Positions 23,028-23,045 of a DNA stretch of 64,000 bases are shown here, in pieces (position 1 is the first letter of the stretch; every line of letters begins with the position of its first letter). The translations under genes and the position numbers were made by a program. The DNA is taken from assembly GCF_003334305.1 (NCBI RefSeq), contig NZ_QOWS01000002.1; one strand, given 5' to 3'. This DNA is from Escherichia coli (GTDB taxonomy: Bacteria > Pseudomonadota > Gammaproteobacteria > Enterobacterales > Enterobacteriaceae). The notes beneath the pieces were generated by a model. It ran no database searches. It saw only the letters and a program-made list of their open reading frames with translations, and was not told the DNA's origin.

Positions 23028-23045
23028 GGGGGAAGGCATTCCCCC
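23028..23045 (+). other. G5/C5 stem-loop in the ycjV-ompG spacer (no downstream U-run)
   Basis: GGGGGAAGGCATTCCCCC between the ycjV stop and ompG start; not a canonical terminator. Confidence 0.35.

Follow-up and report, generated by a model that had tools for sequence, protein, structure and literature searches.

The 44-nt spacer between ycjV and ompG of Escherichia coli encodes a short hairpin that, judged by comparison across genera, is a predicted cis-acting RNA structure conserved on the + strand. By position, it is orthologous to a predicted true transcription terminator of Enterobacter relatives. Our tentatively favoured reading is that this terminator-derived intercistronic stem-loop may now serve mainly as an RNA decay barrier between ycjV and ompG. 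The hairpin (GGGGGAAGGCATTCCCCC) occupies exactly positions 23028-23045 of the window, i.e. the complete 64,000-nt stretch of E. coli DNA that was analysed, and the surrounding features are compiled in Table 1.

Table 1. Features at the ycjV-ompG junction and stem types of orthologous hairpins (positions refer to the window unless a locus is named).
Feature	Position	Strand	Remarks
ycjV	21940..23022	+	MalK-like ABC transporter ATPase, 360 aa, intact here
ycjV stop codon TAA	23020..23022	+	
Intercistronic RNA stem-loop	23028..23045	+	Based on fold, orthologous hairpins, RNAalifold consensus and pair counts
5' arm GGGGGAA	23028..23034	+	5 nt past the ycjV stop
Loop GGCA	23035..23038	+	GTGA in E. 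whittamii; GAAT or AAAA in Citrobacter
3' arm TTCCCCC	23039..23045	+	B2-type E. coli: C23042T and/or C23045T
Tail AGGATAATAC	23046..23055	+	Without U-run; G23048 is G/A polymorphic in E. coli
ompG Shine-Dalgarno AAGGAA	23056..23061	+	AAGGA kept across genera
ompG	23067..23972	+	Monomeric porin, 301 aa, last gene of the ycjMNOPQRSTUV-ompG operon
ycjW	24083-25081	-	Convergent repressor gene
Minus-strand hairpin site, E. whittamii	L006 2962-2979	-	Facing ompG antisense
Minus-strand hairpin site, Escherichia sp. MOD1-EC7003	L039 2963-2978	-	Facing ompG antisense
Stem, Escherichia			GGGGGAA/TTCCCCC
Stem, Citrobacter FP75 and On2M			GGGGGAT/ATCCCCC
Stem, Superficieibacter, Silvania, Trabulsiella			GCCGGGAA/TTCCCGGC
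Stem, Enterobacter, Lelliottia, Leclercia			GCCGGAAAT/ATTTCCGG(T/C)
Stem, Atlantibacter			Unrelated 12-bp stem, GCAAAGGCAGGC

The hairpin consists of a perfect 7-bp stem, in which G5AA pairs with TTC5, and a 4-nt loop (GGGGGAA-GGCA-TTCCCCC). A first-pass annotation of this DNA had described a G5/C5 stem-loop in a 44-bp spacer before ompG; the coordinates of the two genes bear out the spacer length and the hairpin lies precisely where it was placed, but its stem comprises seven pairs and not five. The structure starts 5 nt past the ycjV stop and ends 21 nt short of the ompG ATG, and a ribosome terminating on ycjV would probably cover or melt part of the 5' arm. Masking of the ompG Shine-Dalgarno sequence by the hairpin was rejected, as AAGGAA is unpaired in the MFE structures. 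The ribosome-binding region of ompG (AAUACAAGGAAC, 23050-23061) is similar to the CsrA SELEX consensus, RUACARGGAUGU. A two-site CsrA target made up of the GGA at 23047-23049 and the Shine-Dalgarno sequence is doubtful; about 1,300 genomes show a G/A polymorphism in the upstream GGA.

Folding of the hairpin yielded an MFE of -12.1 kcal/mol (z = -2.5), a stability that was reached by one out of 200 shuffles. For the 61-nt context, in which the hairpin is the sole predicted structure, equally stable folds were obtained for 4/200 shuffles, and by itself the hairpin is thus only mildly improbable for one 44-nt spacer, at about the percent level. Across the window, perfect hairpins with at least 7 bp and a dG of -12 or lower amount to 13 entries (8 loci), and dinucleotide shuffles of the window contain 6.4 +/- 3.8 of them. 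It is the comparative data described below that lift the hairpin well above chance. Within the operon, the ycjV-ompG spacer is the only long spacer between genes, and it holds the only strong intergenic hairpin.

The hairpin motif occurs once in the window and at a median of one place per E. coli genome. A search of Rfam at a permissive E-value assigned no family to the hairpin and returned, apart from noise, a sub-threshold REP/naRNA4 match in the spacer between ompG and ycjW. Membership in a repeat family (REP/BIME or other) was rejected in view of the missing Rfam match at the site and the occurrence of just one copy, both in the window and in genomes. The convergent ompG-ycjW spacer (23973-24082) contains an inverted REP pair, which folds with -44.8 kcal/mol (z -4.9); its match to naRNA4 (39.9 bits) is under the gathering score, and an intrinsic-terminator-like site was found on neither strand. 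In UTI89, this spacer measures 50 nt and is without REPs.

The ycjV-ompG region is present in 4,986 of the 5,426 complete E. coli genomes, with an ABC transporter ATP-binding protein annotated ahead of ompG. Five or six matches to the junction in this search fall on plasmid-typed records, and a few genomes carry two to three copies. The stem of the window type was found in ~3,950 genomes. About 1,340 of those differ at one or two positions of the 51-nt query, and in all three that were sampled the G at 23048, which lies outside the stem, is replaced by A. In ~1,020 B2-type genomes, the 3' arm reads TTCTCCC or TTCTCCT. Both changes are C to T; the + strand thereby gains G-U pairs, the - strand A-C mismatches, as seen for the UTI89 spacer, which folds with -8.4 kcal/mol (z -3.0) on the + strand versus -3.2 (z +0.3) on the - strand. 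Altogether, weakened stems of -7.4 to -9.1 kcal/mol occur in about 20% of the E. coli genomes, and in one strain the G-run of the stem is shortened by a 1-nt deletion. The weakened stems and the deletion could reflect relaxed constraint. The ycjV gene is intact in the present strain; in K-12 DH1 its annotation is that of a frameshifted pseudogene. Ribosomes in K-12 would halt ~157 nt upstream of ompG, and both the occupancy of the hairpin and Rho polarity could change there.

To compare the junction between species, we searched representative genomes for OmpG. The 39 loci obtained come from about 12 genera, among them Escherichia, Citrobacter, Pseudocitrobacter, Superficieibacter, Enterobacter, Lelliottia, Leclercia, Huaxiibacter, Silvania, Trabulsiella and Atlantibacter. 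At every locus with upstream sequence, ompG is preceded by a ycjV homolog, and the intact junctions have spacers of 44-77 nt. All 36 distinct orthologous spacers contain a hairpin 3' of the ycjV stop, at a distance of 1-27 nt; the distance is 1-12 nt in all but one locus, the exception being Enterobacter sp. ENT03 with 27 nt. Each of the 36 spacers folds better than the mean of its own shuffles (mean z -2.8), and in 32/36 no more than 5% of the shuffles match the native stability. The RNA of the + strand is the more stable one in 33 of the 36 spacers, and the 23 G-U pairs across 31 distinct hairpins also suit a + strand RNA. At two loci, Citrobacter amalonaticus S646 (L009) and Leclercia adecarboxylata (L043), the match to ycjV stops 211 and 320 nt before ompG, respectively, which suggests that ycjV is truncated, frameshifted or otherwise divergent there; the hairpin before ompG is kept at both loci.

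Base pairing was counted separately for the two main stem groups; an all-genera MAFFT alignment set the two hairpin types out of register. In the GCCGG group, 99% of the cells are paired, with a series of A-U, G-U and G-C at one pair. The GGGGG group reaches 98% and shows a compensatory change in which an A-U pair of E. coli corresponds to U-A in Citrobacter. As each group offers a single compensatory pair and the sequences are phylogenetically related, the covariation statistics are modest. When the partners were slid by 1-2 columns, pairing fell to 45-82%. The occurrence of different stems at the same position in different genera (Table 1) is a stronger argument than the pair statistics. Closer to E. 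coli, the stem of E. whittamii is identical at 14/14 bases, and the loop and both flanks differ, the 5' flank including an indel; third codon positions of the neighbouring genes have diverged by 14-16% between these two species.

With its GC-rich stem of 7 bp, five G-C pairs and a loop of 4 nt close behind a stop codon, the E. coli hairpin resembles intrinsic terminators and attenuators. It differs from them in lacking the U-rich tract of a + strand intrinsic terminator, and its stem is 5 nt from the stop compared with 9-12 nt in the canonical orthologs. The missing U-run had been pointed out by the first-pass annotation, and indeed only two T are found among the 8 nt 3' of the stem (AGGATAAT), the first four being without T; a terminator scan of the + strand gave no match at the E. 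coli hairpin. A run of T5-8 follows the hairpin in Enterobacter, Lelliottia and Leclercia and makes it a canonical intrinsic terminator, and the same arrangement is present at this place in Huaxiibacter and Silvania. The Enterobacter clade has T at 6-8 of the 8 positions 3' of the stem. The scan called a + strand terminator in E. cloacae and in Leclercia, and no promoter-like site was detected before ompG. The tail of Superficieibacter, TTT(T)ACC, corresponds to a short U-run, whereas a T-run is absent from Escherichia, the GGGGG-type Citrobacter and Atlantibacter. In a tree of YcjV plus OmpG, the GCCGG type is found on both sides of the midpoint root, which indicates that the GGGGG type, with its missing U-run, is the derived form. 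With a hairpin in every ortholog and a canonical terminator in the Enterobacter clade, the ycjV-ompG junction is a conserved point of expression punctuation. The 7-bp stem, the orthology to a true terminator and a moderately T-rich tail on the minus strand go beyond the first-pass annotation. For a reporter design, TTTTTTGT is a sequence for grafting 3' of the E. coli stem.

Published data on the repressor YcjW allow us to follow transcription across the junction. The genes ycjMNOPQRSTUV-ompG are predicted to form a single operon, and the ChIP peaks of YcjW are limited to the upstream regions of ycjM and ycjU (Luhachack et al., 2019; PMC6599011). According to the qRT-PCR source data of the same study, deletion of ycjW increased expression of ycjM 28-62x, ycjT 20-26x, ycjU 39-58x and ompG 34-47x, fold changes that are blind to a constant partial termination at the hairpin. 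Since ompG is derepressed as much as ycjU and the YcjW sites are found only at ycjM and ycjU, transcription crosses the hairpin into ompG, and evidently at least a substantial fraction of it reads through. An ompG promoter in the spacer or at the 3' end of ycjV was considered and rejected: neither E. coli nor E. cloacae has a sigma-70-like site there on the + strand, and the gap of 21-33 nt between hairpin and ATG is too short for a promoter. The expectation of the first-pass annotation that the hairpin would be unlikely to terminate efficiently agrees with these data. Taken together, the E. coli hairpin is most unlikely to be an efficient intrinsic terminator, because it has no U-run, lies 5 nt from the stop and is followed by a gene that is co-induced with the operon.

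A residual activity of the ancestral terminator is nevertheless conceivable. The hairpin would then act as a weak attenuator, at which pausing or partial termination on the + strand despite the poor U-run leaves less transcript of ompG than of ycjV, as the canonical Enterobacter ortholog presumably does. The orthology to canonical terminators and the GC-rich stem of -12.1 kcal/mol point in this direction, and a constant partial termination is compatible with the fold changes from qRT-PCR. We regard this reading as rather improbable, given that the tail lacks U at positions one to four and does not pass the terminator scan, that induction of ompG equals that of ycjU and that the stem is only 5 nt from the stop. 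A terminator placed a few bp past a gene is almost fully repressed by the translating ribosome, and this applies even to strong ones (Li et al., 2015; PMC4824070). It is also unlikely, though somewhat less so, that the Escherichia hairpin is a non-functional remnant of the ancestral terminator, kept by inertia after loss of the U-run. The U-run is gone, two C-to-T changes have entered the B2 stems, and the stem of one strain carries a deletion; moreover, two out of two transitions that preserve a wobble pair would by our estimate be expected by chance in about 25% of cases. However, a mere remnant does not readily account for a stem that stayed intact in four Escherichia lineages while loop and flanks diverged (14/14 stem bases in E. 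whittamii), that was maintained in Citrobacter through the compensatory A-U to U-A change, and that has a counterpart in Atlantibacter, where a different long hairpin, likewise lacking a U-run, is kept independently. As the hairpin is kept in lineages without a U-run, it is probably useful in itself.

The hairpin may also be read from the other strand, as a terminator that stops antisense transcription coming from the convergent ycjW through ompG and thereby insulates ycjV and the genes upstream of it. Run with loose criteria, the scan called a minus-strand site in E. coli (tail TGTATTTA) and Citrobacter FP75 as well as in E. whittamii (TTTTCTTTTG) and Escherichia sp. MOD1-EC7003 (TTTTCATTTA), the latter two being good terminator-like sites, and no other intrinsic terminator-like site was found from ycjW to the hairpin. 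Antisense transcription does enter ompG in K-12, for which a region of Rho termination on the strand opposite ompG has been reported at MG1655 coordinate 1382709 (PMC7815308), but Rho halts the antisense RNA about 500 nt before the hairpin, and the Term-seq tables are without a 3' end named ompG or ycjV. Furthermore, the tail in E. coli is interrupted (UGUAUUUAG), the Enterobacter clade has no T-run on the minus strand (T at 0-3 of 8 positions), and the minus-strand stem is destroyed by A-C mismatches in about 1,000 B2-type genomes (-2.4 to -3.2 kcal/mol, z +0.3), in which the stem of the + strand survives. On balance, we consider a minus-strand terminator decidedly unlikely. The antisense strand of ompG is C-rich (C:G about 1.6), and ycjW transcripts appear to run into ompG. 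A DNA palindrome bound by a dimeric regulator, for instance as an operator before ompG, is highly improbable. A perfect inverted repeat 21 bp upstream of ompG would fit such a site, but the arm sequence, the arm length (6-12 bp) and the spacing (3-8 nt) vary among genera, many copies contain G-T pairs and are non-palindromic in DNA, and no + strand promoter-like site lies alongside. In addition, the ChIP peaks of YcjW and its 14-nt motif are located at ycjM and ycjU and not at the hairpin.

For the decay barrier that we tentatively prefer, the following course of events can be proposed. In the branch leading to Escherichia and Citrobacter, an ancestral GCCGG(G)AA stem would have changed to GGGGGAA and the U-run would have been lost, and with this loss RNA polymerase would have read on into ompG. 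On the transcript, the hairpin would fold after departure of the ribosome that terminates on ycjV. The folded hairpin may then block 3'-to-5' exonucleases, or cap the 5' end after cleavage, and the enzyme/transporter mRNA and the porin mRNA would thereby be uncoupled in their steady-state levels. We infer this barrier mechanism, and with it any effect on stoichiometry, from the conserved + strand structure, its missing U-run and the co-regulation of ompG. The role proposed by the first-pass annotation, a processing or stability element that sets the stoichiometry of the porin relative to the transporter genes, thus stays a putative one for the E. coli hairpin.

There are several precedents for a structure of this kind. 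In E. coli, the 3' ends of many mRNAs are defined and protected by stable stem-loops that lack a U-run; these structures fix the 3' ends seen at steady state and stop PNPase and RNase II (Dar and Sorek, 2018; PMC6061677). The ycjV-ompG hairpin shares their stability, their terminator-like size and the lack of following uridines. In contrast to those sites, which show an enrichment of C over G (rut) downstream, it is followed by a translated gene with a C:G of about 0.6 (0.63-0.68 in the 100-200 nt downstream of the hairpin compared with 0.94 for the whole window). A Rho-linked protective hairpin is therefore not favoured, the downstream region being G-rich and not rut-like. The K-12 Term-seq tables contain no 3' end named ompG, ycjV or ycjW (Adams et al., 2021; PMC7815308); as the operon is repressed in the media that were used, this absence is uninformative. 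A literature search combining ompG with Term-seq, terminator or stem-loop found no paper describing the hairpin.

A second hairpin of this type is present in the window between pspA and pspB (9877-9898). Like the one before ompG, it is without a U-run, is stable (-15.4 kcal/mol) and lies 9 nt past a stop and about 23 nt before a start codon, but it is unrelated in sequence and has an 8-nt loop. It reads GGCGGCG-TCCGAACG-CGCCGCC, followed by GCTCATCG and no T-run. A related case is the REP element between malE and malF, which Newbury and colleagues reportedly described in 1987 as an intercistronic stabiliser hairpin. Both are stem-loops between sugar-uptake cistrons for which a differential stability of the segments has been proposed, whereas the ycjV-ompG hairpin is a unique 18-nt element that occurs once per genome and has no Rfam match. 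In malK-lamB-malM, the gene of a MalK-type ABC ATPase likewise directly precedes the gene of an outer-membrane channel of the same uptake system; the likeness to ycjV-ompG is one of gene order only.

A broader scenario, which we judge improbable as a whole, would treat the junction as an evolving expression valve. The true terminator that persists in Enterobacter would be the ancestral form and would make the porin dependent on read-through. Escherichia would have dropped the U-run and shifted the stem within ribosome reach of the stop, so that transcription of the porin became fully coupled to that of the transporter; the stem would have been kept as a decay barrier, and some species would reuse it as a minus-strand terminator against ycjW antisense RNA.

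These results leave the current understanding of termination and mRNA decay unchanged, and the hairpin represents an ordinary kind of operon punctuation. For ompG expression constructs and operon annotations, the ycjV-ompG junction should be treated as structured. If the hairpin sets the stabilities of the two segments, this would explain how a porin and its cognate ABC transporter can be made in unequal amounts from one YcjW-controlled promoter. The junction would then also provide a natural series for the decay of an intra-operon terminator into a stability element, from the canonical form in Enterobacter through the short U-run of Superficieibacter to its complete loss in Escherichia.
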